A stretch of 64,000 nucleotides of DNA from an uncultured Lentisphaerales bacterium (GCA_943788985.1 CALSSJ010000023.1:32001-96000); one strand, 5' to 3'; counted from the stretch's first letter, positions 8,885-38,931 are shown. Notes: generated by a model from the sequence alone, not told the origin. Program-made: numbers and translations.

Positions 8885-10249
8885 TCAATTAAGGTTTAGC
8901 AGGCCGTAACCATGCTCACCGTGAAGGCTGCTGTCCATACCCGCATTCTCGTCGTCCTTGCTCATGCGCAGACCGATTGTCTTATCCACCAGGATTACCA
9001 AGATCAGGCTCACAACGCCAGCGTAGATCGCCGAAACCAACACACCTTCAGTTTGATACCACAGCTGCTGGCTGAAGCTATCCGGCGCATTGCGCATGAA
9101 GAATGTCAGGCCAATCGCGCCGATGATTCCGGCCACGCCATGAATCCCAAATACATCCAGCGTGTCATCGTAGCCAAGCTTATTCTTCAGCTGGATCGCC
9201 ATGTAGCACCCTACCGAAGCCAGCACAGCCAGCACGATCGCGCCAAGCGCCTGCACATCACCGGCAGCAGGTGTGATCACCACCAGGCCAGCAAGGATAC
9301 CAGACACTAGACCCAGACCCGTTGCTTTACGATGATGCAACCATTCAACCAACATCCAGGCCAACGCACCGGCAGCGGCAGCGATCTGCGTCACAGCCAG
9401 AGCCTGTGCAGTCTGCAGGCCGCTGGCAACAGAGCTACCCGCGTTAAAACCGAACCAGCCTACCCAAAGCAGACCAGCGCCCACCATCGTCATCACCAGG
9501 TTATTCGGATGCATCGCCACCTTCGGATAGCCACGACGAGTGCCCAAATAGAGCGCCATTACCAGACCGGCTACGCCAGCCGAAATGTGGATCACCGTGC
9601 CACCGGCAAAGTCGATCGCCTTCCCTGTTAGGAAGCCGCCGCCCCAGACCCAATGGCATAGCGGGTTGTACACCAGCAGGCTCCACAGCGTGATCAACAC
9701 CAGAAACCCACCGAAACGCACGCGCTCCGCAAACGCACCAGCCAGAATCGCCGGGGTAATCATCGCGAACTTGCCCTGGAACATGACAAACACCAGAGTC
9801 GGGATCGCCATTGCCACCCCGTTCACTTCTATTTCATAAAGTGCGGAGTCCGCACTGCCGAGCAGGATCAGCGAGCTGTCCCAGCCACACCAGCCATTAC
9901 TCACGCCAAAACACATCGCGTAGCCACACACTGCCCAGACCACACCGATCACAGCCATCGAACCGAAGCTGTGCATCATCGTGCCCACCACGTTCTTTGT
10001 CCGGACCAGGCCGCCATAGAACATGGCCAGTGCCGGGATCATCAATAGAACCAACGTTGTTGATGCCAGCATCCAAGCTGTCGTTCCTGTGTCAATCGGA
10101 AGCGGCGCCACAACCTCTGCTGCCTCTCCCAACTCCTGCGCCCAGCTGCCGAACGCTGCAAGCGTCAGCCCGAGCCCCATCCCGTGTTTCCAATGCCTCA
10201 TCCTCATTCCTCGCCCTATTAGGGTTGCCATTTCGTTCACAAGTCCCAT
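8885..10249 (-). CDS. amtB: Ammonium transporter (true start may be 10207 or 10201)
   Basis: AMFYGGLVR, FQGKFAMITP, DFAGGTVIH, WFGFNAGS, DDTLDVFGIHG motifs. Confidence 0.96.
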   Translation of the reverse strand: MGLVNEMATLIGRGMRMRHWKHGMGLGLTLAAFGSWAQELGEAAEVVAPLPIDTGTTAWMLASTTLVLLMIPALAMFYGGLVRTKNVVGTMMHSFGSMAVIGVVWAVCGYAMCFGVSNGWCGWDSSLILLGSADSALYEIEVNGVAMAIPTLVFVMFQGKFAMITPAILAGAFAERVRFGGFLVLITLWSLLVYNPLCHWVWGGGFLTGKAIDFAGGTVIHISAGVAGLVMALYLGTRRGYPKVAMHPNNLVMTMVGAGLLWVGWFGFNAGSSVASGLQTAQALAVTQIAAAAGALAWMLVEWLHHRKATGLGLVSGILAGLVVITPAAGDVQALGAIVLAVLASVGCYMAIQLKNKLGYDDTLDVFGIHGVAGIIGAIGLTFFMRNAPDSFSQQLWYQTEGVLVSAIYAGVVSLILVILVDKTIGLRMSKDDENAGMDSSLHGEHGYGLLNLN

Positions 10250-10277
10250 TGTGAACCAACATCACCACGGAAACGTA

Positions 10278-10294
10278 AGCAGAAACCATGCCAA
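10278..10294 (-). promoter_or_regulatory. Sigma-54 (-24/-12) promoter of amtB-glnK
   Basis: Minus strand reads TTGGCATGGTTTCTGCT, with exact GG-N10-GC spacing, upstream of a nitrogen-regulated operon. Confidence 0.75.
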
Positions 10295-10809
10295 CGACAA
10301 CCAACCCCGCTGTTTCCTGCCTGAAGGCACAACCGCCAAATACGTTTCCTACAATATTGTATTACTTTTTTGTAGGATTGCTCTGCGCGGGCTGTGTCTC
10401 CAGCTCACCGCATCGAGCCTGTCGCAAAGCCACCATTCCTGAGTACAAGGGCAGCTACCTTTGCGGAGTTCGCAAAGCAAATCCAGCCTGGTGGCTGGCC
10501 AACACAGACTCCCCATTGCCCGACTGGTGGCAGCCAGACCTTCACCCGGACAAGCGCCTCCGTAGCTGGAACCGACGCAATCCGCTGCATAACTTCACCC
10601 ACTACATCATTGGCATCTCAGACCGGGACTTCTGCCGTTACGGCATCAACCCAGATGGCGTTTGGGGACCATATGGCATCAATGCCACAGTCCTTCACAC
10701 CGGGCCCATCGTCCTGCCCTTTCTCAGCCTCCAGTCGCCGTGGATCGAGGCCTACGCAGGCTGGCGGGATCGCGGAAACTTCGGCCTTGCCCTCCGCCGC
10801 CGCGACTGA
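10288..10809 (+). CDS. Hypothetical lipoprotein (real start probably near 10357)
   Basis: LLCAGC lipobox-like motif; Trp-rich RNPLHNFTHYIIG domain. Confidence 0.6.
   Translation: MPTTTNPAVSCLKAQPPNTFPTILYYFFVGLLCAGCVSSSPHRACRKATIPEYKGSYLCGVRKANPAWWLANTDSPLPDWWQPDLHPDKRLRSWNRRNPLHNFTHYIIGISDRDFCRYGINPDGVWGPYGINATVLHTGPIVLPFLSLQSPWIEAYAGWRDRGNFGLALRRRD
10461..10475. repeat. Intragenic 15-bp palindrome TTGCGGAGTTCGCAA
   Basis: Exact copy; translated as CGVRK. Confidence 0.9.
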
Positions 10810-10814
10810 GCCCT

Positions 10815-13667
10815 CTACCGAGGCCTACTGCGCCGCCGCCTCTTCTGTGGTTCTGTGAGCACCAGCGCCAGGTTCCCCGTAACCCTCGGCAACACCCAAG
10901 TCGCCACTTCGGCGTCCCCTAGTTTCATCAGTGCCGACCCAGGCTTGGCAGTAGCCAGATCCCAGATCCGCACCTCCCGGCTCGTCCCCGACCCCAAACC
11001 CGGCAGGCTGAGTAGCGCCCCAGCCACCGCCAGCTCCGACGAATTCTCCACGTAGATCAGGCCCGTGCGAGCCGCCAGCACCGAGTCGCAACGTAACGCC
11101 ATCACCTGCTCGTCCGCCGGCTCCAGCCGAATACTTGACCACCGCAGCCACCCCGCGCCAGTGCACGCCAACTCCACAACATGGGCTCCCCCCGGAATCC
11201 GCACCCGCATCCGTGCCCCGGTTGCGAACTTCGCAACTGGCCAGCTTGTCTCGGAGATCGGCTTCCCATCCAGCAGGATCCGCAGCCCACTCCCCCGGTC
11301 GTCCACACTCTCCACCGTAAGGACCAACTCCAGCGCTGCATTCGTGCTCAGCTCCAGTCGCATCCCCGCGGACGCCTCCGGGTGCAAGTATGCTGGCAGC
11401 GGCTCGCGCATAGAAACAGTCAACAGCTCATCAATCCCCGCCGTCCCCGCCTCGCCGTCAGGATCGAACCCCACAGCCACCGGGACCAGAGTCAGCTCTC
11501 CAGCCTTGCCGCGCGCAGGTGCCCTCACCACCACCCGGTCCATCGCCATTACTCGGCCATCGAGAAACCGCCGCCAAGCCACTAGCGACTCACCCAGCCC
11601 ATCATCGGCCGCAAACGGAGCGGGTGCCCCAGCCAGTGCTGCCTTATACAAAGCCGAACGCACCACCGACTCATGCCATAGACGCAGGCCATGCCCATCA
11701 CCCGCCACCACCGCCTGAATCTCCCCGTCACTCACAATCCAGCGACGATTCATCACCATCCCCAGTGCTTGGTCCCACTCCTCCAGCAGCCATTCCCCCT
11801 CGCGCACATCCGAGATCGTCAAGGACAACGCCCCTGTCGCCGCCGCCTGCCCCTCTGGAGACAACAGCATCGCCGTCTCACCACGAAGCCCATGTGCAGG
11901 CACTGCCGAAAAAGCCGGGACCAGCCGAATCCCCTTCAGCTGAAACCAGTCCGCTCCCCCGTTATAGATCCTGAGCGTATGCTGCCCAGCTGGCACCCAA
12001 GTCGAATAGGTCCCCTGATGCCGCATCACCGGCCTGGCCCGCTCACGTTCCAGGCGTGAAATCGAAAACACCTCGCTCTCTCCGCCAACGCCATCCAGCT
12101 CAAACCCAAGCGTCGCGCCCACATAGGACACCTCGCCCACCTCCAGTTCTACCGAAACCCCATGTGCCGCGTCCACTTCCACCGTGATCTCGTTTAGTTG
12201 ATCCGGCCTCACTGCGCCGTGTACGTAGGCTGGCAGCTCACCCTGCAGCGCTGGATTTGCGGAGTTCGCAAACAGCGTCACCGGATTCGCATCCGTACGC
12301 TCAAACACCCCGTCAGGCGGCCGAAACTCTCCCGCGCCGAGTGCTCCAGCGGGCTGCAACTGCACCGTCAGCGGCCGTGCATGCTCCCTGCGCGCATCGA
12401 ACGGCCCCAGCCACGCCTCATGGCGCGCGTACTCCGGATACAGACTCTTGCCTCTGGCCGCGACGCTCCGATACAACGCCCGCTCCAGCCAGGCCCCATG
12501 CGCCTCCACACGAGCCCCCGGAACCGCAGTCATCTCCGGCAGTTGGCCCGACAGCAACGTCAGCGGCTGCTCACACGCCGCCACAAAATTCGCCGCGGCC
12601 GCATGCCCCGCATAGGGCGCGTAATGGTGCTTGGCATCGTGATTGCGCCAGAACATCACAAAGCTGATCCGCCGCGCCACCGGATCCGCCAGAATCGGGC
12701 CGAGCAGACAGTCTGTAAACCAATTCTCAGTCGGCAGGCCTTCCTCGCCACACTCCGTCAGGGCCGCCACCTTGTCGCGCTCGTCTGCCAGCGCCACCAT
12801 CACCCGCAAGCGCCGCACCAGCGCGTCCCGCTGTTCTTCAGACTGCAGCGATTCATAGCTATCGTGCCCCAGCACATCCACCACATCATCCCCCGGATAG
12901 CGCAGTAAGTATGACTCTCGATCCACAAAATGATCCGGTGCATACGCAATCAGCAACTGATGCAAATCATAGGTTTTGCGGAGTTCGCAAACCGTCCAGC
13001 GAAACAGCTGCCGATACGCCTCATCCGAGCACGCCCCCGTCCCCCACCAAAACCACGGCCGATTGGGTTCGTGGTACGGCCGCAAAATGAGCGGAATCCG
13101 CGCGCCATTGTCATCCGTCAGGGCCGCCAAAATCCGCGCCACGCGCCGCACCTCCCGAAGCAACAGCCCGTGGTGAGTCCCGCCCGGCAACAACTCCGCC
13201 ACCCGCATCGACTCCGTGTCCTTGAACGACCCGCCCGTGACCAACTCATGCATATGCCAGGTCACGGTCTGCACCTCGCCTCGCCGATGCGACTCCTGCA
13301 CCAGCGTGCGCAGGCTCGACTCCGTCAGCCCGTTCAGCAGCGCCTCTCCGGTTCCGCCATCGGCGCTGCCCACATCCCAGCCCAGCACCGCCGGATGGGC
13401 CCCACAGACACTCTTGAAGTCCGAGCGTCCTGCCTCGCCCTGCCAGCCGACACCATATGCCGTGGCATCCTGATGCCCCAGCATGATCCCAAACGCCGCC
13501 AGATCCTGCAGATTTGCGAACAGCGCACGCGCCGCCGGGTCGGCTGCCGGGTCGCTTGGCCTAGAGAAGACAACAGAGCAAAGAACAACAGATGTCAGAA
13601 TAGCGCGCATGCCAGCTAGTAACACGCACCTCGGCTCACGCAACAGCGCTCCGCATATCCCCAGCAA
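10815..13667 (-). CDS. GH26 beta-mannanase with long C-terminal CBM-like extension (start probably 13610)
   Basis: GHQD, TWH, LRPYHE (acid/base), WFWWG, YPGDDVVDVLGHDSY, ALTECG (nucleophile), FWRN motifs. Confidence 0.88.
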   Translation of the reverse strand: MLGICGALLREPRCVLLAGMRAILTSVVLCSVVFSRPSDPAADPAARALFANLQDLAAFGIMLGHQDATAYGVGWQGEAGRSDFKSVCGAHPAVLGWDVGSADGGTGEALLNGLTESSLRTLVQESHRRGEVQTVTWHMHELVTGGSFKDTESMRVAELLPGGTHHGLLLREVRRVARILAALTDDNGARIPLILRPYHEPNRPWFWWGTGACSDEAYRQLFRWTVCELRKTYDLHQLLIAYAPDHFVDRESYLLRYPGDDVVDVLGHDSYESLQSEEQRDALVRRLRVMVALADERDKVAALTECGEEGLPTENWFTDCLLGPILADPVARRISFVMFWRNHDAKHHYAPYAGHAAAANFVAACEQPLTLLSGQLPEMTAVPGARVEAHGAWLERALYRSVAARGKSLYPEYARHEAWLGPFDARREHARPLTVQLQPAGALGAGEFRPPDGVFERTDANPVTLFANSANPALQGELPAYVHGAVRPDQLNEITVEVDAAHGVSVELEVGEVSYVGATLGFELDGVGGESEVFSISRLERERARPVMRHQGTYSTWVPAGQHTLRIYNGGADWFQLKGIRLVPAFSAVPAHGLRGETAMLLSPEGQAAATGALSLTISDVREGEWLLEEWDQALGMVMNRRWIVSDGEIQAVVAGDGHGLRLWHESVVRSALYKAALAGAPAPFAADDGLGESLVAWRRFLDGRVMAMDRVVVRAPARGKAGELTLVPVAVGFDPDGEAGTAGIDELLTVSMREPLPAYLHPEASAGMRLELSTNAALELVLTVESVDDRGSGLRILLDGKPISETSWPVAKFATGARMRVRIPGGAHVVELACTGAGWLRWSSIRLEPADEQVMALRCDSVLAARTGLIYVENSSELAVAGALLSLPGLGSGTSREVRIWDLATAKPGSALMKLGDAEVATWVLPRVTGNLALVLTEPQKRRRRSRPR
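11222..11236. repeat. 15-bp palindrome variant TTGCGAACTTCGCAA
   Basis: Fits TTGCGRASTYCGCAA; inside GH26 gene (AKFA). Confidence 0.85.
12257..12271. repeat. 15-bp palindrome TTGCGGAGTTCGCAA
   Basis: Exact copy inside GH26 gene (ANSA). Confidence 0.9.
12976..12990. repeat. 15-bp palindrome TTGCGGAGTTCGCAA
   Basis: Exact copy inside GH26 catalytic domain (CELRK). Confidence 0.9.
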
Positions 13668-13748
13668 GAATCGCAGGACACCGCGCCCGAGAATAGAGGT
13701 TTTCCGCTATGAAGGCTGTAAAATAGGGCCCTACTTAGATGCCCGCCG

Positions 13749-13988: not shown

Positions 13989-14042
13989 AGTCAGTCTCCT
14001 CCCTCTGCATCTTGAATCAGTGACTATTTTTGGTCACACCCG

Positions 14043-16154
14043 TCAGCCCATATCGCGCACAAGCTGCTCACTGCAGCGAAAGGCCAAGGCGTAAATTGTC
14101 AGCACCGGGTTGAAGCCGCCATTTGTCACGTGTAACGACCCGTCGATGACGGACAGGCCCTCGTGGCCGTGCACCCGACCGTATGAATCACAGACCGATG
14201 TCGCCGGATCATCCCCCATGCGACAAGTCCCCGCCTGATGCTGACCGCCCGGTCTCCCAGGCCGACGCGGGGCATTGCGCCACAAACGCTCGGCATCCGA
14301 CGCCCCAACCCAGTCCGCAGCCCGGTCGGCCAGAAACTGTGATGCGCGTACACTCTCCTCGTGGCATACCCCCGAAAGAACCGCCGCTGGAATCCCCAAC
14401 GAATCACGGACACCGGGATCCACTCGTACGCGGCAATCCGGCGTGGGAATCTCCTGAATCGGCCCACAGACATGGATCATACGCCGAGCATCTTCACGCA
14501 TGAATCGCTTATTCTCCGCACCCCAGCCGGGCACTCCCGGCGGCAGATGGCCATGCCACGTGATCACCGGCAGCAACACAAACTCATCGCACAGCATCCC
14601 ACCGCCAATAATCCCCTCGTTGCCGTGACTCCAGTGCGTCGTACCGATCCGGACCCCAGGCCCAGTATAATCCACCACCTCTCGGCGCAAAATCCCACGC
14701 GCACCGCTGTACAGATGGCCCTGCAGGTTGCGACCCACCTGATCGTTCTGATTGCCCAAGCCCTGCGGAAACCGATCTGTCGCGCTGTTCAGCAACAATC
14801 GCGCCGACTCAATCGCCCCCGCACTGCACACCACTTGGCGTGCCTGCACCGTGTGACAGCTCGGCCCATGATTTCCCTGGCGCCGCAGTTCCACAGCGGT
14901 CGCCCGCCCCTCGTCATCCACCAACACCCGGGCCGCAGAAGTCTCCGTCAACAGATCGCAGTTTCCCGTCGCCAGCGCGCGCGGAATCACGCTGTTGTGC
15001 GAGCCTGTTTTGGCATCCACCGGGCACTCAAAGCCCACACAGGCGCCACACCCAGCGCAGGCTGGCCTGCCGCCGTAATCCGTCGAGTTGATCAGCAATG
15101 GCGGAGCCCCTGTCGCAATCCCTAGCTTCTCCGCGCCTTTGCGGAGTTCGCAAGCCGCCGGGGTATCCGGCAGTGGTGGCATTGGGTACGGCGCAGACCG
15201 CGGTGCAGCGTGAAATGCGGAGTCCGCAACCCCGCAGACGCCCAGCTCTGCCTCCGCCTGCGCATAGTGCGGGGCCAACTCCTCGTAAGAAATGGGCCAA
15301 TCGGCGAGCGAACTTCCCTTTGGCACGCCGTAGTCGCTCGCCATGCGAAAATCCTTCGCTAAAAACCGCCAAGCCTGCGCACCGTACAGGCGAGTCCCCC
15401 CGCCCAGCATCTGCGCGTTATTACTCCAGCCCCCATGGTTGGGCTGAAGTACCCGCCGGGTCCCGTCCTCGCCAATTACCACGCGCGGGTTGCCCGCCAA
15501 CGCCGGGCCGCCATTGATTCCGTAACGGCTCAGGCGATGATTGCGCAGATGATCGCTGCCAACCGTGCCCTGCGGGCGCCAGCTGCCCCGCTCCACCAAG
15601 AGCACCGTCTTACCAGCTTCTGCCAGCTGACAAGCCACCACCCCGCCCCCTGCTCCGGCACCAATCACCACAGCATCGTATCGTTCGCGCAACTGCTCGG
15701 GTGCGATCTCCGCAAGCTCCGCTGGAGTGTGCGCGCGGGTAGGCCGCTTAATCGCCGGGCTGTAGCTCATCATCGGCCAGCCTGCCTCCGGGCCATGCGC
15801 CCCGCTGCTTGCGTCCGAGTAGTAATTCTCCGCCACCAGCGCATTCGCATCCCGAAACCAGCCAGCCTGCTCTCCAGTTGCGAACTCCGCAAGCAGCGCG
15901 TCCTGCGCCGCTGCGGCCAACTCTGCGAACTCCGCATCAGCCAGCCTTTCGAGGCCAGCCAGAAACTCGTCCTGCTTGTGCGCCCAATCGCCCGCCAGCA
16001 ACCGCGAGACATAGTCCTCACATTCCGCCTCGGCACCATCCGGCCAGCCGTCGCCTCCCGGAATTACCCGCCGGGCAAACGCCCGCAGCACCTCTCTCTG
16101 CTTATCTGTGACAGCTCTACGCCCCGTTTTGCTTCGCAACCGCGAACAATCCAT
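14043..16154 (-). CDS. GMC-family FAD oxidoreductase fused to an N-terminal gluconate-2-dehydrogenase subunit-3-like domain
   Basis: VIGAGAGGG FAD motif, Cys cluster CAGCGACVGFEC, HQAGTCRMG, NPVLTIYALA; N-terminal RVIP...NYYSD...GW domain. Confidence 0.88.
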   Translation of the reverse strand: MDCSRLRSKTGRRAVTDKQREVLRAFARRVIPGGDGWPDGAEAECEDYVSRLLAGDWAHKQDEFLAGLERLADAEFAELAAAAQDALLAEFATGEQAGWFRDANALVAENYYSDASSGAHGPEAGWPMMSYSPAIKRPTRAHTPAELAEIAPEQLRERYDAVVIGAGAGGGVVACQLAEAGKTVLLVERGSWRPQGTVGSDHLRNHRLSRYGINGGPALAGNPRVVIGEDGTRRVLQPNHGGWSNNAQMLGGGTRLYGAQAWRFLAKDFRMASDYGVPKGSSLADWPISYEELAPHYAQAEAELGVCGVADSAFHAAPRSAPYPMPPLPDTPAACELRKGAEKLGIATGAPPLLINSTDYGGRPACAGCGACVGFECPVDAKTGSHNSVIPRALATGNCDLLTETSAARVLVDDEGRATAVELRRQGNHGPSCHTVQARQVVCSAGAIESARLLLNSATDRFPQGLGNQNDQVGRNLQGHLYSGARGILRREVVDYTGPGVRIGTTHWSHGNEGIIGGGMLCDEFVLLPVITWHGHLPPGVPGWGAENKRFMREDARRMIHVCGPIQEIPTPDCRVRVDPGVRDSLGIPAAVLSGVCHEESVRASQFLADRAADWVGASDAERLWRNAPRRPGRPGGQHQAGTCRMGDDPATSVCDSYGRVHGHEGLSVIDGSLHVTNGGFNPVLTIYALAFRCSEQLVRDMG
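15139..15153. repeat. 15-bp palindrome TTGCGGAGTTCGCAA
   Basis: Exact copy inside GMC gene (CELRK); variants nearby at 15215, 15701 and 15923. Confidence 0.9.
15878..15892. repeat. 15-bp palindrome, reverse orientation TTGCGAACTCCGCAA
   Basis: Exact reverse-complement copy inside GMC gene (AEFA). Confidence 0.9.
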
Positions 16155-16344: not shown

Positions 16345-16359
16345 TTGCGGAGTTCGCAA
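16345..16359. repeat. 15-bp palindrome TTGCGGAGTTCGCAA
   Basis: Exact copy (LRSSQ frame). Confidence 0.9.
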
Positions 16360-16986: not shown

Positions 16987-17001
16987 TTGCGGAGTTCGCA
17001 A
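16987..17001. repeat. 15-bp palindrome TTGCGGAGTTCGCAA
   Basis: Exact copy (AEFA frame). Confidence 0.9.
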
Positions 17002-17827: not shown

Positions 17828-19552
17828 TCAAGCAGAGGCAATCGCTGGGATCACGCCGCGGACGGAGTTGAGGATGGCCAGGGCATCGCTGCGGGGCAGG
17901 TCTTGGGGCGTGATTGGGGCCTCGACGAGCTCTCCGCTGGCCAGCAGTTCACTGCGCAGGGTCCCGGCCAGCAGGCCGCAATCGATAGGCGGTGTCAGCC
18001 ACTGCCCGCGCAAGAGCACGGCCAGGTTGCCAATGGAGGTCTCGGTGCACTCGCCGCGCTCATTGACGAGGATGACGTCATCGGCCGCAGGGGCGGACTG
18101 GCGTGCGGTGTCGTAGGCGAGGCGATGTGTGGTTTTGTGGCGCAGAAACAGGTCCTGACTGTGGACGGAGTCGGGCACGACCTTGAGCCTCCAAGGCTCG
18201 CCGGTGAGGCAGTGAAGGGTCTGTGAGCGAGGCGTCGATACGGCGGATGCTGTGAGTTCGACCCTGCCTTGGGGATCACAGGTCAGACGAAGGCGGGTAG
18301 GCTCTTGGTCCTGACGGTGCCTGAGCCGTTCACGCAGGGCGGGCAGGTCCAGGGCAAAGCCAAAGTAGGATGCGGAGTCCGCAAGTCTGGCCAGATGGCG
18401 GTCCAACAGCCAGATGCCCTCTCCGGGCAGGCTGATCATGGTCTCGAGCAGGGAGAATCGTGGCTGTGGGCGCTGCATGATCTGCGCCTTGAGCAGGCAT
18501 TCGGCATACTCGAGCTGGGTTGCGGAGTCCGCAATCACGCCGCTGCCTACGCGATAGTGCGCGCGCCCGTCGGCTGCGACCTGAAGGGTGCGTATGGCCA
18601 CGTTGAACAGGGACCGCCCATCGGGCAGCAGGCAGCCGATGGCCCCGCAGTAGGCGCCACGCGGTGCTTCTTCCAGCTGATCGATCAAGCCCATCGTCTG
18701 GACTTTGGGCGTACCAGTGACGGAGCCGCAGGGAAATAATGCTTGCAGGCAGTCCCAGAGCGTGGTGGCCTCGGAAATCTTGGCGCTGACGGTGGAGGTC
18801 ATCTGCAGCACGGTGGGGTGCCGCTCGACCTCGAATAATGCCGTGGGCTCGACACTGCCGAAGTCGGCGATACGGCCAAGGTCGTTGCGGAGCAAGTCGA
18901 CGATCATCACGTTCTCGGCACGGTCTTTCTCGGAACTGGCCAGTTCGTGCGCCAAGGCATCATCTTGAGAGGTGCTGAGTCCGCGTGGCCGGGTGCCCTT
19001 CATCGGGCGGCAGGTCAGGGTGGTCCCCTCGCGCTTGAAGAACAGTTCCGGCGACAGTGAGATTAGGGACCAGTCCTCGGTTTCGATGCAGGCGAAGTAG
19101 CCGAGCTGTGTGGTGGGACATAGATCTTGAAACAGCGCCATGGGGCTACCAGTGAGGGTGCCGTGCATGCCAAAGGAATAGTTGACCTGATAGGTCTCGC
19201 CGTCTTTGATCCGCTGGTGGATATCGGCCATGTGTCGGCGATAGGTGCTGGCACTGATGGCAGGCACGAGCGGGGAGAGTGAGGCGGCGGATCGTTCAAT
19301 GGGAGCGGTTTCGCCACAGACGCCGAACCAGGCAAGCGGCAGGTCGAGCTCCCGACTGGCCAAGGCGCTGTCGAAGGCTGGTGCAGCGTCGTAGGCGATG
19401 TAGCCGACAACGGTGGCTCCGCCTGCGGCGGCGGCTTCGGCCGCGGTGATGACAGCGCGAACGTCGGCCAGATCGTGGGCGACGAACTGTCGCGATATCT
19501 TAGTGAAGAAGTGGACGCCCTCGGACCGAAAGTCAATCCGGGCGCGGTTCAT
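17828..19552 (-). CDS. pabB: Aminodeoxychorismate synthase component I fused to ADC lyase (PabB-PabC)
   Basis: GETYQVN, SPELFF, PMKGTRPR, ENVMIVDLLRNDLGR, FNVAIRT; C-terminal class IV aminotransferase motifs LLETM, RHLARL, HKTT, GLLAGTLR. Confidence 0.92.
   Translation of the reverse strand: MNRARIDFRSEGVHFFTKISRQFVAHDLADVRAVITAAEAAAAGGATVVGYIAYDAAPAFDSALASRELDLPLAWFGVCGETAPIERSAASLSPLVPAISASTYRRHMADIHQRIKDGETYQVNYSFGMHGTLTGSPMALFQDLCPTTQLGYFACIETEDWSLISLSPELFFKREGTTLTCRPMKGTRPRGLSTSQDDALAHELASSEKDRAENVMIVDLLRNDLGRIADFGSVEPTALFEVERHPTVLQMTSTVSAKISEATTLWDCLQALFPCGSVTGTPKVQTMGLIDQLEEAPRGAYCGAIGCLLPDGRSLFNVAIRTLQVAADGRAHYRVGSGVIADSATQLEYAECLLKAQIMQRPQPRFSLLETMISLPGEGIWLLDRHLARLADSASYFGFALDLPALRERLRHRQDQEPTRLRLTCDPQGRVELTASAVSTPRSQTLHCLTGEPWRLKVVPDSVHSQDLFLRHKTTHRLAYDTARQSAPAADDVILVNERGECTETSIGNLAVLLRGQWLTPPIDCGLLAGTLRSELLASGELVEAPITPQDLPRSDALAILNSVRGVIPAIASA
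18520..18534. repeat. 15-bp palindrome variant TTGCGGAGTCCGCAA
   Basis: Fits the consensus; second variant at 18370-18384; inside pabB (ADSA). Confidence 0.8.
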
Positions 19553-20739
19553 GGCTGCTCGGCTGCCAGCTGTTCCACGAGGCTGCGGTCGAGCGCATTG
19601 AGGTTGGTCACGGAACCGAGTGGATTTGGCAGGGCAATGGAGAGTTCGCCGCCGAGATGCTCGCGAAACTCGTCAAGCCCCTGCCAGACCGCCTGGAAGT
19701 CGGTCTGCAGCAGTGTGTGTGTGGTCGGCAGTCCGACGGCCCGCAAGGCACCCACCACACGATCGCAGTCCGCCTTCTCGATGAGCCTGACTCGAGCTGC
19801 GTAGCGGAGATCAAGCGCGACGCCAATGGCCACGGCCTCGCCGTGCAGTAAGGAAAAGTCGGTGAGACATTCGAGACGGTGGGCGGACCAATGGCCAAAG
19901 TCCAGAGGCCGACTCGTCCCTTGCTCGAACGGATCGCCGCCCGCGCAGATGTGGGCCATGTGCAGTTGAGCCGTGCGCTCAATCATGTGGGCCTCTGCCT
20001 CCGCTTCGCGGTTGCGCAGTTCGCACACATGGTCGCAAAGCCAGTCGAGGAAGTCTCGGTCCTTGATGATGCCCACTTTGAATGCCTCGGCGAGGCCACT
20101 TACCCAGGTGCGCTGATCAAGCGTAGGCAGGAAATCATAGTCACAGACGACTAGATCCGGGACTTTGAAGGCGCCCCAGAAATTCTTGGTGCCGAAGCCA
20201 TTTATGCCATTCTTCACACCGACCCCGGAATCGTTCATGGACAGGACGGTGGTAGGCATGCGCACCAGGCGGAGTCCGCGATGGGCGGTGGCAGCGACAA
20301 AGCCAACGGCGTCCAGCACGGCACCGCCCCCAATGGCGATCAGATAGGAATGGCGACAGAGCTTGTGGTCCCGAATCCAGCCACCAAGGTCCTCGATCAC
20401 TGGCCATCCGGCTTTGGCTGCCTCGCCGCCAGCGATGGTGCGAATGTCGATGAGCTGGAGTGCCGGCGCATGGCGAGCGGCCCAACGACGAATACGATCG
20501 AAGAGCCCGGGGTGCGCCACCGCAACATTCTCATCGATTACCACAGCGATCCGTGCGGGTACCATTTCGTCCGGAAGCCAGGCATAGTCGTCAAAGGCGC
20601 CGCGCAGGAAATGCACGGCGTAGGCCGCCTCTAGGGTGAAGCGGCTGCTTTGGATGTTGGTCGCGGCAATGGTGGGCAAAGTAAGAATCCCCGACGGCTG
20701 AAAAGCCTCAATTTCTACAGGAGCGCGCCGGGCGTGCAA
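19549..20739 (-). CDS. 3-dehydroquinate synthase family sugar-phosphate cyclase (EboD-like subtype); start uncertain
   Basis: GGEAAK, RHSYLIAIGGGAVLD, PTTVLSMNDSGVGVKNG, DFGHWSAH, LLHGEAV motifs. Confidence 0.85.
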   Translation of the reverse strand: MHARRAPVEIEAFQPSGILTLPTIAATNIQSSRFTLEAAYAVHFLRGAFDDYAWLPDEMVPARIAVVIDENVAVAHPGLFDRIRRWAARHAPALQLIDIRTIAGGEAAKAGWPVIEDLGGWIRDHKLCRHSYLIAIGGGAVLDAVGFVAATAHRGLRLVRMPTTVLSMNDSGVGVKNGINGFGTKNFWGAFKVPDLVVCDYDFLPTLDQRTWVSGLAEAFKVGIIKDRDFLDWLCDHVCELRNREAEAEAHMIERTAQLHMAHICAGGDPFEQGTSRPLDFGHWSAHRLECLTDFSLLHGEAVAIGVALDLRYAARVRLIEKADCDRVVGALRAVGLPTTHTLLQTDFQAVWQGLDEFREHLGGELSIALPNPLGSVTNLNALDRSLVEQLAAEQP

Positions 20740-25885: not shown

Positions 25886-26406
25886 GGGGGCTTGTCTCCC
25901 AGAACGCCCCTGAGAGCCGTGGCCATGCCCTGAAGCCAGAGTAGGACGAAGCTGAACGGGATGAGCGCACGGACGATGCCGCGCAGTGGCAGGCCGTTAT
26001 CGTTGGCACTGGCTTCCCAGCCGGAGGGGAGAAAGGCAGCACGGGTGAACTGCATTCCTTCCCAGATCACCACGCCGCAGAATGGCGTAAGCAGGGCTGC
26101 AACGCCAACGAGATTGATCCAGGCTCGGGTCTTTGGCCTACACTTGTGATAGAACACATCGACGCGCACGTGCCGGTCTTCTGCGAGCGTCATCGGCGCG
26201 GTAAGCAGCAGCAGGCCTGCGAACAGGTGCCAGCCCACTTCCTGCCAGGCGACACTGCCACCACGCAACGCGGAGCTAAGCACATCGATCGCCACAACGG
26301 CAACCAGACCAGCGCCGTACCATGAAATCAGATTACCCAGTGCGAGGTTCGCATCGGTGACGGCCTGACCAACCCGGCGTACCATCAATGCCGCCCCGTG
26401 CGCCAC
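25873..26406 (-). CDS. TRAP transporter small permease (DctQ-like)
   Basis: QEVGWHLF, TLAEDRHVRVDVFY, WEAS...GLP motifs; four TMs. Confidence 0.85.
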   Translation of the reverse strand: MAHGAALMVRRVGQAVTDANLALGNLISWYGAGLVAVVAIDVLSSALRGGSVAWQEVGWHLFAGLLLLTAPMTLAEDRHVRVDVFYHKCRPKTRAWINLVGVAALLTPFCGVVIWEGMQFTRAAFLPSGWEASANDNGLPLRGIVRALIPFSFVLLWLQGMATALRGVLGDKPPCEA

Positions 26407-32334: not shown

Positions 32335-34030
32335 TCAGTATGCGCCACCTTCCCCTAGCTGTCTGATCAGTATGTCGCGAACCGATTGCGTCTCCCGCAG
32401 GCCTCCAGTTCCAACCTGAAATGGGCGCTCCCAAAAGGTTTCTCCCTCCACTCGGGCTCGCAGCACAAGCCCGAAACTGCCCGGCTGACGACCGCACATC
32501 CGCTCGACATCCCAGCTGACAATCGCGGCAAAGGGCAGGACAAATCGCTCGTCCGCGCCTTCATGGACCAATCTCCTCTGGCGATGATCCACGTACAACA
32601 CCCCCACGTCCACTTCTGGAAAGAGCTGGGGCAGTTCCCACTTGGCCCTTGGGATAGCGATGACACAAATGCCCCTCCGCTATTTTGTCAACGTTCTCAT
32701 GACGGCGCCTTTCGATCACGTCCATCAAGCGGCTCGATTGCCCGCGACGACCCAGATTCAGGGCCATCAAGGCTGGGATCCAGCCGAGACCGACCAGTAC
32801 GGCAACCGCGACCAGCTTCATGGATAGCGAGATTTCGTTAGGGGTGCAGGAGACGAGCATTGCAGCCATAAAGGACAAGCCACAGGCCCCCAGCGCCGAA
32901 TACCCCGGCCAATGGCCCCCGCGCACCATGGCATATGAAGGCTGCGGCTGCTCGACCGGACGGGCGTGTATGCCAGCCGGCGGCAGGTCCCGACGACGAA
33001 GGGCGGCACGCAGCAAGGAAAACTCCCCCCTCGCAGCGCAATAGGCCCGCCAATCATTCCGCGCCAGAGATGCGGTAAGAATGACACCGATCAGGATGAT
33101 CCCACCATCTACGGCCATCGCTTTTAGATCCTGTACCTGAACGTACTGCGGCGCAAAATAGAGAAACATCCCCAGAAAAGTGATCAATCCGGCTGAGGCG
33201 AACGCCAACATCAGGGCCTGCGCCTGCATCGTCTCGACCAACTGATCAATCCGCGCCTGTTCGTCGCTCTCCCAGTCTGGGTCGGCCTTTTGCGGAATTC
33301 GCAATCGAAGGGCGTGGTGAAGCAATTGGGCCCCGTGACTCAAATCGTCGACCGAAAACTCGCCGCGCGCATGGCAGATCAGCAACCGGTCACGCGGGTG
33401 CCCAGAGGTCGCGACAGGGATCCAGCGGAAGGCGCGGATCGAATTTACGGGAATGACCTGCTTCGTACCCCGCCGGGTTATGATGAGGTCCGAATCAGTG
33501 AGTGCAAGGGCATACTTTCCGCTGCGAGCGACCAGCTGGTCCTGCTTGTGGAGCTCGCTAAGCTGCCGGTCATAAACGGCTCCGAGCTTACGGCCCAAGT
33601 AGATATAGATGTCGCGCCCGCGGCGAGTAAGATGACCAGGGCGAATCACCATCAACTCCTCCCCACGCAGGCCTATTAGGCGGATCGCGACCTGTCTGCT
33701 GCCGACGAGTGCGTCATTGATCTCGTAGACAAAGGATGCCAAGGCGACCGTGTTCCACGGGATCGTGACGTTGTTATCACGGCGACAAATTCCATGGTCG
33801 CTCAGCTCATAATTCTCCTGGTTCTCCTGTCGGTCAAACCAGCGAACAGCCAACAACAACAGATGAAGCCCAAGGGTTGAAGCGAGGATTTTCAGCGGGG
33901 CCCAGGGGTCGACGTATACACCCGCCCAGAGCGAGAGCATGAGCGCGGGAACAGCAAAATAGCGCTCGAGCAGCAGCAGCGTTCCGATATCAAAGCCACT
34001 GTCACACCTCGAAACTTTGACCGTCTGCAT
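32335..34030 (-). CDS. Hypothetical multi-TM membrane protein with PH-like soluble domains (frameshift near 32650)
   Basis: ATG at 34030 after AGGAGG; paired TMs; C-terminus continues in ORF 32335-32613. Confidence 0.55.
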
Positions 34031-35458
34031 GGCCCCTCCTGAGCTTGAGATAGCGCCGGACAGTGTTGATGCTGACGTCCAACTCTTTCGCAGCACGCGC
34101 CAGACTTCCGGTCTCGCGATACACGGCCGCGACATGCCGCGCAGCCACGCCTTCAAGCGTGTTGTCATCGACATCAGCTTCCCTCCGCCCGGTAAAGCGG
34201 GCGTAGTCTGTCGTCTTAAAAATGATACCGCGTTCGAGGATATTCTGCAGTTCACGGATGTTTCCGGGCCACGCGTGCCCCTGCAGGACCTTAAGCTGCC
34301 GCTGTGCCAGCGGTGCGAGACCACGGCGATAGCGGTAGTCGTTTGCGATCTCCGCCAAATCCTCCGGGCGCTCCCGGAGCGTGGGCATGCGTAGTTCCAC
34401 AGTGCTAAGTCGGTAGAACAGGTCTTCGCGAAAATTCCCAGCAGTGACCATCTCGCGCACACAACGATTTGTCGCAGAGAGAATCCGCACGTCTACACGG
34501 ATCTCCGTGTCTCCCCCTAGCCGTCGAAAGCGCTGCTCCTGAAGAACACGCAACAGCCCCGCCTGTGCCTCTAGACTGAGTTCGCCGACTTCGTCGAGAA
34601 ACAACGTGCCTTTATCTGCCTGTTCGAACGCTCCTTTTCGCTGCGTCAGCGCCCCGGTAAAGGCACCTTTTTCGTGACCAAAGAGCCGGCTTTCGAGAAG
34701 TTGCGGGGAGAGGTCGGCGCAGTTAAAGGTCCAAAACGGCTCGTCCCGCCGCTCAGACTGCCGGTGAATCAAGTAAGCAGCGGTCTCCTTTCCGGTACCG
34801 GTCTCTCCGGTAATCAAAACCCGACAGTGCCCTTCGAGGCCCACCGTACGAATCGTGTCCCGGACTTTCTCCATCTGTACGCTGTGGCCCCGAAGCTCGC
34901 GATGCCCGAACGTTGCGAACTCCGCAATCGCCTGATGATCCTGCCGGCGCAAGGACTGGCTGGTCGCAAGATGCCGAACCACGTCAGCAAACGCGCTTAC
35001 ATCGCCTAGGCGCCGATAGCGCGACATAGCGGATTGGATCAGGGCGCGATGATCGCCGTGGGCACTAGTCGCAAGCCCGCAGAGGAAGCGTTCTTGCTCG
35101 GAGATGTCGTCTCGAGCTGCGACTGCGCGCGCCAGAGAACCGTCTCGCAGGCCGATTACAGTTTTACTGAACAGGCTGAGGTCAATGCCGACCGGTGGTT
35201 CGCGGTCACTGTACCAGATTACGACTAGGTTTCGCTGCTTCAGCTTCTGCAATGCCACTACGGTAGAGTTCACGTCCTCGCCCAAGCCGACGCCGACGAT
35301 GTGAATGCGGCGAACCCCATCTGGTATTTCGCGTTCAACGTACGGGGGACAGCCGGCGCTTACTCACGCCGCGCACCTCGCATACCGAAGGTGCGCGCCA
35401 CGAGGACAGCGGCAGCACAGGCTGCGTCCTCTGCCCAAGCCGACAGGATCATGTCCAT
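34002..35458 (-). CDS. Sigma-54-dependent enhancer-binding protein with uncharacterised N-terminal domain (frameshift near 35390)
   Basis: GETGTGKE Walker [34 protein letters not shown], Fis-like HTH. Confidence 0.9.
34913..34927. repeat. 15-bp palindrome, reverse orientation TTGCGAACTCCGCAA
   Basis: Exact copy inside bEBP gene (AEFA); variants at 25615 and 33290. Confidence 0.9.
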
Positions 35459-36625: not shown

Positions 36626-36628
36626 CGG

Positions 36629-37710
36629 TCAGTTCTTGGCAGCTGCCAGCTTGTCCTCAGACTTAGCTTCAGGCTCGGCTTCCACCTCTGGCTTGAGCTT
36701 CTCATTGATTCGCTGTGACCAACTTCTTCTCCAATTCTGGATCTTCCTTGATCGCCACCTTCGATTGCTCGCGGGCCCCTGCCCAACTGAGAGTCCCGTC
36801 GAAGGAGAACCAAGCACCTTTCTTGTCGATAATCTTGAGGTCTGTAGCAACGTCGAGAATCGAACCGGCCTTTGAGATTCCTTCCCCGTACATGATGTCG
36901 AATGAAGCCTGCTGGAACGGAGGTGCCAGCTTGTTCTTGACCACCTTCACCACCACACCGGTTGCCGATCGGAGTCTGGCTTGAGTCCTTGATGATCTCA
37001 GCACGACGGATCTCCATGCGAACGGACGCGTAGAACTTCAAGGCATTTCCGCCGGTCGTGGTCGTCGGATTCCCGTACATCACGCCAATCTTCTCACGGG
37101 TCTGGTTGGTGAATATCACACAGGTATTTCCGCGGCTGATCGCACCGGTAAGCTTACGGAGAGCCTGGGACATGAGCCGAGCCTGAAGCCCGACATGCGA
37201 GTCTCCCATCTGCCCTTCAATCTCTGCCCGCGGCACGAGAGCTGCCACGGAGTCGATCACCAGCACGTCGATTGCATTGCTGCGGACCAAGGTCTCGGCA
37301 ATATTGAGTGCATCCTCTCCGCAGTCCGGCTGCGAGACCAGCAGATCCTGGGTGTTGACGCCGAGGAGGCGAGCGTAGGATGGGTCGAGCGCGTGCTCCG
37401 TATCGACAAACGCTGCGATGCCCCCATTACGCTGGGCGTTCGCCACCACGCTGAGACAGACCGTGGTTTTTCCGGAAGATTCCGCACCATAGATCTCGAC
37501 GATTCGCCCGCGGGGTACGCCTGGTATCCCCAGCGCCACGTCCAAAGACATGGCGCCCGTGCTGATTGTACCGATGTCCGCAGTTTTTCTTGTCGCCAAG
37601 ACGCATGATCGAGCCAGCCCCGTGCGTGCGGTCAATCTGGGCAAGGGCCGCGTCGAGATTTCCCTCTGGGGCCCGTGTGTTTTGGGATCTTTCTTTTTAG
37701 CCAAAGCCAT
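36629..37710 (-). CDS. recA: Recombinase A (several frameshifts)
   Basis: [63 protein letters not shown] continues in another frame. Confidence 0.95.
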
Positions 37711-37713
37711 ATT

Positions 37714-38931
37714 TTAGTCTCCTGTCGTGAGCTGAATTCGAAGTTGATTTAAAGCGAGTGACACGGTACGCTTTTTGGACCGTCTCGCGGTCGCCGCCCA
37801 AGCGGCGTTCCAGAACTCGCACGTCATTGTGTACCTGCGTGCAATAAAAACAAGCCCAACTGGCTTTTTATCCGAACCTCCACCGGGGCCGGCGATCCCA
37901 GTGACCGCGATTCCGGCCTCAAGATCCAGCCGCCCGCAGAGACCGCGCACCATTGCCTCCGCGGTCTCCGCACTGACTGCGCCGTGGGTATCAAGCGTCG
38001 CTTCCGGAACGCCGAGCAATTGGTGTTTGAATGCGTTGCTGTAGGTGATCATGCCGCCTGAAAAGACGTCTGAGACGCCCGGACGGGCCGTGATCGCGCT
38101 GCCGATTCCACCTCCCGTACAGGACTCCGCCACACCGAGGCGCGCCCCGCGTACCCGCAATTTAGCGACCACGCATTCCGCAAGATCGCCCTCGATTGCG
38201 AACTCCGCAAACTCGGCCATGATCGCGGCGAACGCCAGAGAAAGCTGCGAGGAGCATGCCGTAGCCGTAACGCGCACCGCCGTGGCACCATACGAAACAC
38301 AGTACGCAGGTGAAACCTGAGGAAAGTCCGCCAAGACGGCGAGCACGCGCTGCTCCACCTCTGGCTCTCCGACATCGAAGACCTTTAACTCCCTCGTTGC
38401 GGAGTTCGCAGCAAACAGCGCCTGCAGGCGAGGCACAATACGCTCCCGCATCACTGCGCCGAACTCTCGGGGTGGGCCGGGGAGCATGCCGACGGCCCGG
38501 GTTCCATTTGTGCACCACAATCCTGGCGCGACGCCTGCGGAGTTCGCCAGGATTTCCGCGCCAGCCGCTGTATGTGATTGGGCGTCGAGCTGTCCGGGGG
38601 AGATCTCCTTGCCCCGGGATTCAAGCGCCTGTCGCGAGTGCGCTTCCGCCTCTGGGGAAAACGCATAGGGTAAGGCAAGCGCATCGGCGATGGCTGCCCG
38701 CGATAGATCATCCCGCGTTGGGCCAAGGCCGCCAATGGTCAAAACCAAGGCCCCGCGCTCGAGCGCACTGCGCACTGCACCAGCCACGGTTTCGCGACTG
38801 TCAGGAACGCAGGTTTCACGATCAATACCCAAACCAATCTCAGCCAGCATCTTGCCAGCTGTGACCAGGTTGGTATTCAGCGTCCGACCTGCCAGCAATT
38901 CATCCCCGATCGAAACGACTTCAATACTCAC
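37714..38931 (-). CDS. cinA: CinA-family competence/damage-inducible protein (NMN deamidase domain)
   Basis: IGDELLAG...NTN, GGLGPTRDD, LPGPPRE, AESCTGG, TGIAGPGGG..KPVGLV; upstream of recA. Confidence 0.93.
   Translation of the reverse strand: MSIEVVSIGDELLAGRTLNTNLVTAGKMLAEIGLGIDRETCVPDSRETVAGAVRSALERGALVLTIGGLGPTRDDLSRAAIADALALPYAFSPEAEAHSRQALESRGKEISPGQLDAQSHTAAGAEILANSAGVAPGLWCTNGTRAVGMLPGPPREFGAVMRERIVPRLQALFAANSATRELKVFDVGEPEVEQRVLAVLADFPQVSPAYCVSYGATAVRVTATACSSQLSLAFAAIMAEFAEFAIEGDLAECVVAKLRVRGARLGVAESCTGGGIGSAITARPGVSDVFSGGMITYSNAFKHQLLGVPEATLDTHGAVSAETAEAMVRGLCGRLDLEAGIAVTGIAGPGGGSDKKPVGLVFIARRYTMTCEFWNAAWAATARRSKKRTVSLALNQLRIQLTTGD
38196..38210. repeat. 15-bp palindrome, reverse orientation TTGCGAACTCCGCAA
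   Basis: Exact copy in cinA; variants at 38397 and 38535. Confidence 0.9.

Follow-up and report, generated by a model that had tools for sequence, protein, structure and literature searches.

The 15-bp palindrome TTGCGGAGTTCGCAA, which recurs in the 64,000-nucleotide stretch of Lentisphaerales DNA analyzed here (the window), is an instance of a genome-wide, lineage-conserved and hyper-abundant DNA word. We are close to certain that the word is real, operates at the DNA level, and is of the HIP-like kind. Its consensus TTGCGRASTYCGCAA, a 7-1-7 palindrome (TTGCGRA-S-TYCGCAA), had 11 matches in the window and none in each of 100 dinucleotide-preserving shuffles. The core TGCG-N5-CGCA was present in 28 copies, and 22 window sites (24 rows) lay within two mismatches of TTGCGGAGTTCGCAA, against 0.28 expected. 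In the 4.58-Mb assembly of the marine host, there were 380 consensus copies and 1,749 core copies (0.38 per kb), a core excess of about 1,600, compared with only 142-205 copies genome-wide for every other spacing or arrangement of the half-sites. The palindrome also accounts for the most frequent 10-mers and 15-mers genome-wide.

All nine exact copies listed in the first-pass annotation were present, in forward orientation at 10461..10475, 12257..12271, 12976..12990, 15139..15153, 16345..16359 and 16987..17001 (+ strand), and as the reverse complement at 15878..15892, 34913..34927 and 38196..38210 (- strand). Together with the consensus variants TTGCGAACTTCGCAA (11222..11236) and TTGCGGAGTCCGCAA (18520..18534), also reported earlier, they make up the 11 matches to TTGCGRASTYCGCAA. 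Ten further sites had been described as carrying one or two mismatches. This holds for nine of them; the tenth, GTGCGGAGTCCGCAC at 9841..9855, has three mismatches to TTGCGGAGTTCGCAA and retains the core. Copies at 1137, 13514, 22582, 22633, 23711, 26340, 32386, 34343 and 42098 were absent from the earlier list.

The core copy TTGCGATGTTCGCAG (1137..1151) lies in a HAD-hydrolase gene in the Ala-x-x-Ala frame, and GTGCGGAGTCCGCAC in an ammonium-transporter gene, where it reads SADSAL. The exact copy at 10461 reads CGVRK. A GH26 gene contains TTGCGAACTTCGCAA, the exact copies at 12257 (ANSA on the sense strand) and 12976 (CELRK, in a different frame), and the core copy TTGCGAACAGCGCAC (13514..13528). 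CELRK is also encoded by the copy at 15139 in a GMC-oxidoreductase gene. It is followed by the variants ATGCGGAGTCCGCAA (15215..15229, ADSA) and GTGCGATCTCCGCAA (15701..15715, AEIA), the exact copy at 15878 (AEFA), the variant CTGCGAACTCCGCAT (15923..15937, AEFA), and the exact copy at 16345, which is read in the third frame as LRSSQ. A pabB-like gene carries a second ATGCGGAGTCCGCAA (18370..18384, ADSA) and TTGCGGAGTCCGCAA, a 3-dehydroquinate synthase gene the variant TTGCGCAGTTCGCAC (20012..20026), and dfp the core copies ATGCGGACATCGCAA (22582..22596) and ATGCGGACACCGCAA (22633..22647). Further downstream are the core copy GTGCGGCATCCGCAA (23711..23725), the variant GTGCGAACTCCGCAA (25615..25629, AEFA), the core copy GTGCGAGGTTCGCAT in a DctQ-like gene (26340..26354), the variant TTGCGGAATTCGCAA (33290..33304, LRIPQ), a degenerate copy with two mismatches and one broken arm (34343..34357), and the exact copy at 34913 in a sigma-54 activator gene (AEFA). 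Three copies fall in cinA: the exact copy at 38196 (AEFA, with F-G in relatives), the variant TTGCGGAGTTCGCAG (38397..38411, AANSA, with proline in relatives), and the degenerate copy CTGCGGAGTTCGCCA (38535..38549, ANSA). A 15-protein alignment of cinA has no gaps at any of the three motif sites; the word was made in place through point substitutions, and insertions were not involved. The variant TTGCGGTGTTCGCAC in a DUF218 gene (42098..42112) is the last, and no copy was found from 42113 to 64000. The 13.6-kb giant gene is indeed free of copies, as had been noted, but this absence is not significant, because genes with its GC of 0.557 have on average about 0.12 copies per kb, and about 1.4 would be expected.

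The earlier statement that the copies lie within genes, in varied frames and on both strands, was borne out in part. Frames and strands do vary, but unevenly, with 19 of the 26 in-gene window copies in the Ala-x-x-Ala frame, and the exact copy at 16987 and the core copy TTGCGTCTCCCGCAG (32386..32400) are in no called gene. Genome-wide, 1460 of the 1749 core copies fall within called genes, 1007 of them in the Ala-x-x-Ala frame. Codon-preserving nulls (20 runs each) did not reproduce these numbers. Shuffling of synonymous codons with the protein kept left a mean of 2.25 consensus copies, compared with 317 seen in called genes, and 222 cores, compared with 1463 observed; shuffling of codon order left 0 consensus and 115 core copies. 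Each of the three frames was enriched more than 60-fold over the synonymous shuffle. Core density was similar in non-coding (0.33/kb) and coding DNA (0.39/kb), with a like spectrum of centres. Because all frames are enriched and non-coding density is equal, the constraint is on DNA rather than peptide, in agreement with the first-pass annotation.

The word has nevertheless left an imprint on the proteome. AEFA occurred 173 times and AFEA 19 times, and tetrapeptides in motif order numbered 1016 compared with 322 in reversed order. For LRSSQ and CELR[KN] the counts were 38 and 48, with 0 for either in reverse. The two motif alanines were coded GCG..GCA in 40-81% of cases, where codon usage predicts about 5%. 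The word has altered protein sequences as well as the choice of codons.

Across the genome, copies have no conserved flanks, with no information past 15-17 bp. The only enriched arrangement is the inverted half-site pair at spacing 5, and single half-sites are not enriched, indicating that both halves are read together. The previously suggested dimeric reader is supported in this respect, as the half-sites behave as one symmetric unit. The centre is specific in this genome (RASTY in 380/594 copies), and the favoured centre GAGTT is the palindromic GAGTC with a single C-to-T change. The orientation check proposed earlier gave no gene-strand bias for the asymmetric form (103/75 vs 85/84, p 0.16). 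Asymmetric cores were evenly oriented overall (207 vs 217), and their link to GC skew was weak (odds ratio 1.6, p 0.02).

The copies are clumped (variance/mean 1.87), with gaps of up to 62.7 kb. Short distances of 15-400 bp are over-represented 2-3-fold, and 13 pairs are directly adjacent, with a pitch of 15-16 bp. Species-specific low-GC stretches lack the word. Its density climbs 5-fold with local GC, a rise that composition-matched controls do not show. The same relation was present in two related genomes, G025 and G028. The GC link is seen at each of the three codon positions and may therefore be due in part to protein composition instead of recombination or age.

Comparison with related genomes, another of the checks proposed, revealed enrichment in 37 of 251 Lentisphaeria genomes, representing 14 of 30 families, whereas none of the 107 genomes belonging to the phylum's other classes was enriched. 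Copies run from hundreds to thousands in this part of the class. Some sister genera lack the word. Enrichment extended to genomes of 41% GC (per 400 kb, 53 and 51 copies vs 2 for the control). Other Lentisphaeria families have the same arms around an almost unconstrained centre, as in G018 and G034, and the strength of centre preference differs by lineage in a dialect-like manner. Of the orthologous sites of the sister species G025 and G028, 8/20 and 8/22 had intact arms, where about 2 would be expected (p 4e-4 and 3e-4, respectively). Identity was 0.84-0.86 in the arms and 0.74-0.75 in the flanks; unlike the arms, centre and flanks were not conserved above background. About 60% of sites were unshared between sister species. 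For the genome studied here, the genome set contains no relative below the level of order, and in metagenomes nothing was found between 100% and 58% identity.

The word resembles the self-DNA words known from cyanobacteria, Neisseria and Haemophilus, and has been forced into genes despite protein change. HIP1 of cyanobacteria is the octamer GCGATCGC (PMC4390886, PMC5861425, PMC13756078). HIP1 and the alternate cyanobacterial HIPs are, like the word here, palindromes that are hyper-abundant beyond codon-preserving nulls. HIP1 likewise occurs inside genes in all frames and also between genes, is conserved across a deep clade with some lineages lacking it, and is kept above background at orthologous sites. 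Several differences are apparent. The sequences differ (TTGCGRASTYCGCAA vs GCGATCGC), and in place of a contiguous octamer the word here spans 15 bp in a dimer-like 7-1-7 form (5-N5-5 in some lineages). It is less dense than HIP1 and is restricted to part of one class. No methyltransferase site is embedded in it, and the present genome does not share a methyltransferase with other motif-rich genomes.

The DUS of Neisseriaceae and USS of Pasteurellaceae have asymmetric cores of 9-12 bp that occur about once per kb and are spaced more evenly than random. Like the word here, they are present in thousands of copies regardless of orientation, leave an imprint on peptide content, form dialects by lineage, and are rare in atypical DNA. 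A drive from biased uptake and recombination, as for DUS/USS, would account for the pattern in Lentisphaeria. In contrast to DUS/USS, the symmetric 15-mer is less frequent and occurs in clumps, and ComEC and PilM do not track it. ComEC was found in 240 of the 251 Lentisphaeria genomes, PilM in 5/5 relatives and RecC in 5/5 genomes, in each case including motif-poor ones, and these genes therefore do not follow the word. ComEC was not found in the present assembly (83.6% complete); a prepilin peptidase is encoded within the window.

The matS, SBS, NBS and parS sites of MatP, SlmA, Noc and ParB are also palindromes of about 14-16 bp that are scattered in genes and read by dimers, as proposed for the word here. 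They number in the tens and are regionally confined. The 1,749 cores counted here, in a clumped, GC-dependent scatter, do not resemble sites of this kind. A ParB/Noc-type reader, considered earlier, is not supported either: ParB_N was found in 0/5 other Lentisphaeria genomes searched, motif-rich and motif-poor. We know of no matS, SBS, NBS or parS site that reshapes a proteome. No published description of the 15-mer was found, and, in line with the first-pass annotation, it is not known to match the consensus of matS, SBS, NBS or parS.

A site array for an abundant dimeric nucleoid-associated or chromosome-organizing protein, with selection on each site, was the first reading offered in the first-pass annotation and would fit a 7-1-7 palindrome that is read as a pair and of which the arms but not the centre are kept between species. 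The abutting copies could mean side-by-side binding, and since the class seems to lack ParB, another organizer may exist. We nevertheless regard this explanation as unlikely. About 1,700 high-information sites, maintained at amino-acid cost, are far above the tens typical of known site-specific organizers. The GC-dependent clumps are separated by gaps of 20-60 kb, sister species do not share most of their sites, entire sister genera manage without the word, and no candidate reader emerged. That the word marks self DNA for a nuclease or a modification system, either as a Chi-like protective signal or as a bipartite, HsdS-guided type I-like target, appears rather improbable. The nearly free centre in G018 and G034, a non-specific 5-bp spacer between two specific 5-bp arms, matches the format of type I/IIB targets, RecC is present, and among DNA methyltransferase families N6_Mtase (PF02384) alone occurred in each of the 5 motif-rich genomes searched. 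However, PF02384 is also present in 4/5 motif-poor relatives, belongs in G025 to an ordinary complete hsdR-hsdM-hsdS island, and is represented in this genome only by hsdM fragments within a 17-kb motif-free gap. The centre is specific here, and the asymmetric core lacks the polarity of a Chi-like signal. Moreover, restriction-system targets are usually avoided, not enriched.

The word as a by-product of an orphan methyltransferase and very-short-patch-type repair bias is already disfavoured, and we consider it very improbable. This model has a precedent in HIP1, for which it has been discussed (PMC4390886). In this genome, a C5 methyltransferase adjoins an HNH protein, and the single C-to-T change in the favoured centre would be in keeping with such a bias. 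Against it, the C5 enzyme was not found in 4/5 motif-rich genomes and Vsr was found in none of the five, N6_N4_Mtase (PF01555) and Dam-type (PF02086) enzymes each occurred in 1/5 genomes, and a six-frame scan of this genome detected no intact N6/N4 motif pair. A specificity of 15 bp is also much longer than a VSP context. Likewise already disfavoured, and scarcely credible, is a hairpin signal in RNA or single-stranded DNA, or a REP/MITE-like miniature mobile element. The word is palindromic, and its commonest form gains a G-U pair on one strand only, but the asymmetric form is indifferent to gene strand, non-coding density is equal, arm sequence is fixed without co-variation, and no Rfam family was found in the window. 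A REP/MITE-like extragenic unit is ruled against by the absent flanks, the predominance of in-gene copies, and the lack of insertions relative to orthologues. Altogether, the distribution of methyltransferases, Vsr, ParB, ComEC, PilM or RecC does not explain the word.

We infer that a putative symmetric (dimeric) sequence-specific protein recognizes the word in double-stranded DNA, that this reader was probably ancestral to much of the class and lost several times, and that a directional force tied to it keeps regenerating the word. As a mechanism we tentatively propose, by analogy and at somewhat less than even confidence, a self-DNA tag of the uptake-sequence/HIP1 kind. Word-bearing DNA would be preferentially taken up, retained or recombined, and the word would therefore spread by molecular drive wherever proteins tolerate it, accumulating with residence time in the genome. 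Its absence from low-GC species-specific DNA and its GC-rising density, as a residence-time signature, are counted for the self-DNA tag. HIP1 itself is now proposed as an uptake signal (PMC13756078). The clumped spacing, the symmetric 15-bp site, unlike the asymmetric DUS/USS cores, and the failure of ComEC, PilM and RecC to track the word count against an uptake tag. Arm conservation is explained equally well by drive and by purifying selection acting on a binding site. We know of no report of competence in Lentisphaeria. It is possible, although we would not call it probable, that part of the Lentisphaeria carry an ancient self-DNA watermark, with a putative dimeric reader that biases DNA uptake, keeping or recombination. 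If true, the PVC group would have an uptake-signal-like system with symmetric-dimer recognition, unlike that of DUS, USS and HIP1.

The degenerate consensus of the 15-bp palindrome, TTGCGRASTYCGCAA, was matched 11 times in the window, compared with no match in any of 100 dinucleotide-preserving shuffles. At two mismatches or fewer to TTGCGGAGTTCGCAA, 22 sites were found where 0.28 were expected, and the core, TGCG-N5-CGCA, was present in 28 copies, every one within 1137-42112. Re-examination confirmed all coordinates in the first-pass annotation, but its list was short of nine additional copies, and the variant at 9841, which it had placed at one or two mismatches, retains the core with three mismatches to the main form. 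The abundance extends to the source genome (4.58 Mb in 48 contigs, GC 58.3%, 83.6% complete), which contains 216 exact copies of the main form and 380 of the consensus, and whose commonest 10-mers and 15-mers are pieces of the word.

The excess is tied to one arrangement of the arms. TGCG-N5-CGCA occurs 1,749 times in the source genome, compared with 142-205 times for each of the other spacings from 0 to 15. There was no excess of the same arms everted or in direct arrangement, and the half-site outside full copies was not enriched (12,021 versus 9,946-11,437 in permuted controls). In an alignment of 494 core copies, information was confined to positions -2 to +12 with none further out, and the copies are therefore a bare word without a longer element around them. 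The centre reads R-A-S-T-Y, and its commonest form is asymmetric: GAGTT/AACTC was found in 424 copies, followed by GAGTC/GACTC (239), AAGTT/AACTT (109), GAGAT/ATCTC (100) and AAGTC/GACTT (78), with an identical spectrum of centres in non-coding DNA. The word is best written in 7-1-7 notation, as TTGCGRA-S-TYCGCAA.

The force on the word acts at the level of the DNA and not of the peptide. According to our own rough gene calls (3,347 genes, 81.6% of bases), 1,460 core copies lie within genes and 289 outside genes or across gene ends. The genic copies are read as Ala-x-x-Ala in 1,007 cases, and in the remaining two frames in 245 and 208 cases, so that one codon phase is preferred (69%) but not obligatory. 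The first-pass annotation had named a codon-preserving null as the comparison that could refute a DNA-level signal. The word survives it, with 317 consensus copies against a mean of 2.25 under a synonymous-codon shuffle that leaves the proteins unchanged, and 1,463 core copies against 222. Consensus enrichment over this shuffle exceeds 60-fold in each of the three frames, and shuffling codon order left 0 consensus and 115 core copies.

The word has also left an imprint on the proteome. Tetrapeptides in motif order number 1,016 in the source genome, compared with 322 with the same residues reversed. AEFA is found 173 times and AFEA 19 times, and LRSSQ (38), LRTPQ (24), CELR[KN] (48) and CGVR[KN] (27) have no reversed counterparts at all. 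The alanine pair of the motif-order peptides is written GCG..GCA in 40-81% of cases, whereas codon usage predicts about 5%. In CinA (window 37714-38931), all three copies fall in ungapped columns of a 15-protein alignment; at one copy alanine replaces a proline common in relatives, and at another F-A replaces F-G, so that the copies were made by substitution rather than insertion, sometimes at a cost to the protein. In the same gene, residues 374-395 (window approximately 37747-37812, minus strand) are out of frame compared with relative P0001 (94% identity), after which the reading frame resumes, which suggests paired indels or an assembly error.

The source species turns up often in marine and estuarine metagenomes: 20 runs from 10 studies contain the stretch. 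When contigs from 4 marine runs were compared with window positions 9500-29499, none of the 40 differences among those listed (there were 64 further ones) hit the 16 motif sites; only about 0.5 would be expected there, so that the population comparison is without power on constraint. For the GMC oxidoreductase gene, the metagenomes contained one relative at 100% identity and the next at 58% or less, and hence no intermediate relative that could polarize substitutions. A joint from 17003 to 16343 had the appearance of recombination between two copies, but its 32 letters correspond to another locus of the source genome (on contig C38, three copies), and we regard it as an alignment artefact. The window also carries a separate dispersed repeat of about 150-180 bp (17306-17485), unrelated to the 15-mer, with 25 blastn hits in the source genome; six or more of these (contigs C13, C12, C25 and others) span 145-181 bp with 83-90% identity. 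This repeat shows extra multi-contig depth and opposite-strand joints in metagenome contigs and has no Rfam match; the window as a whole contained no Rfam family and no tRNA. Each of 60 IMG/VR contigs contains a single exact 15-mer, which by our own estimate is roughly the chance expectation. The density of the core is host-like in only one of these contigs, L082, which is classed as viral (GC 0.60; 14.6 kb of its 28 kb were read and contain 6 core copies) and may derive from a phage or prophage whose host carries the word.

The maintenance of the word can be followed between two sister species of genus g18, G025 and G028 (2 and 3 contigs, GC 0.41). The 400 kb read of each contained 53 and 51 copies, respectively, compared with 2 for the control, so the word is enriched in spite of a base composition that disfavours it. 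The two genomes were aligned over 127 kb with 76.6% identity; of the orthologous sites in this alignment, 8 of 20 in one direction and 8 of 22 in the other keep both arms, where flank identity predicts about 2 (p = 4e-4 and 3e-4, the two directions being non-independent because sites are shared). Identity was 0.84-0.86 in the arms, 0.74-0.75 in the flanks, and 0.72-0.79 in the centre. Arms are therefore retained or re-created, with turnover at about 60% of the sites. Low-GC stretches not common to the two species have almost no copies in either genome.

Enrichment was defined by a threshold of our own, 40 or more TTGCG-N5-CGCAA copies together with a ratio of 8 or more to the reversed-pattern control. 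On this definition, 37 of 251 genomes of the class, in 14 of 30 families, were enriched, and 6 further genomes reached 4-7 times the control. The three largest families had no enriched member (0 of 47, 0 of 90 and 0 of 33). Rich and poor genera stand side by side within several families (g15/g18 versus g21 in f9, g99/g107 versus g93/g97 in f29, g60 versus g53/g75 in f16, g79 versus g66 in f24, g50 versus g34/g69 in f14 and g22/g30 versus g37 in f12), which implies that the word was lost, or gained, repeatedly. Outside the class, 0 of 107 genomes of the phylum were enriched, with a top count of 25 (control, 10). What stays constant in the word is its arms, while the share of copies with a RASTY centre varies by lineage, from 64% in the source genome, 72% in G017 and 81% in G032 to 4-8% in g18 and about 1% in g15; by our own calculation, chance under equal base frequencies would give about 0.8%. 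A weak R-a-n-t-Y preference is retained in g18. Among 80 named recA-region loci, two had host-like density, carrying the submitter labels Victivallis sp. and Kiritimatiellota MAGs. In the window, the recA frame itself (36211-37710, minus strand) matches the RecA family only over residues 37-250, followed by an FtsW/RodA-like piece (381-484). For most relatives the RecA alignment stops near residue 252, and the frame may be the product of a frameshift, gene fusion or misassembly.

The asymmetric core is evenly oriented in the source genome (207 versus 217), without bias relative to gene strand (103/75 versus 85/84, p = 0.16), and its association with local GC skew is no more than weak (odds ratio 1.6, p = 0.02). 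These results speak against RNA-level signals and polar signals of the Chi/KOPS kind. Copies are clumped: 5-kb windows give a variance/mean of 1.87, neighbours at distances of 15-400 bp are in 2-3-fold excess, 13 pairs abut at a pitch of 15-16 bp, and stretches without a copy reach 62.7 kb.

Density rises with GC, from 0.138/kb in the lowest to 0.725/kb in the highest quintile of 5-kb windows (rho 0.52), whereas composition-matched controls are flat or rise less than 2-fold. Opportunity is ruled out as the cause, because, between the bottom and top GC quintiles of genes, the share of A-x-x-A written as the word climbs from 0.026 to 0.099 and copies in non-alanine frames become 7 times as frequent. 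GC also peaks on the copies, from 0.586 at 4-6 kb to 0.628 within 20 bp, with flat controls. GC1, GC2 and GC3 are all higher near copies, so protein composition explains much of the peak, and we set GC-biased gene conversion around the word aside; age, recombination and protein composition are indistinguishable as causes of a peak at all three codon positions. The 13.6-kb giant gene indeed has no copy, as the first-pass annotation remarked, but this absence is predicted from its low GC and is not significant as a signal. Contigs C9, C35 and C37 of the source genome have about 5 times fewer copies than the genome mean at ordinary GC (0.57-0.58) and may be foreign elements or mis-binned contigs. 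A second RecC gene is located on C9.

The search for a reader or driver covered DNA modification and repair, uptake, recombination and segregation genes. The DNA methyltransferases of the source genome comprise one C5 enzyme and a fragmented type I system in a motif-free gap, and a six-frame scan revealed no intact N6/N4 motif pair. The gene after that of the C5 enzyme encodes a 225-residue protein whose C-terminal domain is HNH (C17:79194-81272; 7195-9273 of locus L035), and the two are possibly a small restriction-modification pair. In the decayed type I island (C36, approximately 35.5-41.7 kb), both hsdM genes of a tandem pair are broken into fragments, an internal TGA interrupts one of them, and of hsdR only the C-terminal domains are left; the island sits within a 17-kb stretch free of the palindrome. 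The C5 enzyme was not found in 4 of 5 motif-rich genomes, Vsr was found in 0 of 5, PF01555 and PF02086 each in 1 of 5, and PF02384 in 5 of 5 motif-rich and 4 of 5 motif-poor genomes. The single full-length hsdM of G025 was rejected as a driver, since it is part of an ordinary complete type I island. This defence-type island (G025:C1:1700000-1718000) contains hsdR, a 484-residue gene of no named family, hsdM, hsdS, a 1,260-residue KAP-family NTPase, a GIY-YIG protein and a Fic protein. ComEC is present in 240 of 251 class genomes irrespective of the word and was not found in the 83.6%-complete source genome, and PilM and RecC are present in 5 of 5 genomes, motif-rich and motif-poor alike. A ParB/Noc-type reader gained no support, as ParB_N (PF02195) was found in 0 of 5 genomes (G034, G040, G210, G198 and G025). 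These include a 2-contig assembly that is 96% complete, and the class may be without ParABS. None of these candidates (C5 methyltransferase, ComEC, PilM, ParB_N, RecC, Vsr, PF01555, PF02384, PF02086) discriminates rich from poor genomes.

The word is a DNA-level, symmetric, class-restricted and maintained feature. We tentatively favour a self-DNA tag, which a dimeric protein would read and which biased uptake, retention or recombination would spread, because such a tag explains the pattern of substitution in all frames, the imprint on the proteome, the centre dialects and the scarcity in atypical DNA, and because USS/DUS, and HIP1 as it is now viewed, offer parallels. HIP1 has recently been argued to be an uptake signal (PMC13756078). 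Against the tag stand the clumping of copies, the symmetry of the site and the failure to find an uptake gene that tracks the word; the uptake machinery is class-wide and so neither supports nor excludes it.

An array of nucleoid-protein binding sites under selection is conceivable but doubtful, and a self-marker for a nuclease or a type I-like enzyme is unlikely. We consider a methyltransferase or repair bias highly improbable, since no tested methyltransferase or Vsr follows the distribution of the word, and a HIP1-style methyltransferase link is disfavoured. Least probable are the hairpin and mobile-element readings: an RNA-level hairpin is at odds with the unbiased asymmetric core relative to gene strand, and a mobile element with the lack of conserved flanks.

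Hyper-abundant genomic words are few. To our knowledge, HIP1 is the best known of them and has been unexplained for three decades. The present word resembles the cyanobacterial words in being hyper-abundant and palindromic, but has a different architecture and no methyltransferase link. No published description of it was found in the literature outside subscription journals; spaced-palindrome matches were limited to an engineered MwoI site (GCGN5CGC), and matches to motif strings to primers.

The word is thus an independent case in a phylum other than that of HIP1, and a useful second system for what such words do, with its longer dimer-like architecture, class-conserved arms, centre dialects and repeated loss (or gain) between sister genera. 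The within-family contrasts in gain or loss are well suited to phylogenetic profiling for the reader. In these genomes, peptide motifs of the AEFA/ANSA type are DNA-driven and not protein motifs, so that peptide statistics are distorted, and the word provides a clear-cut marker in binning and in recognizing foreign DNA.
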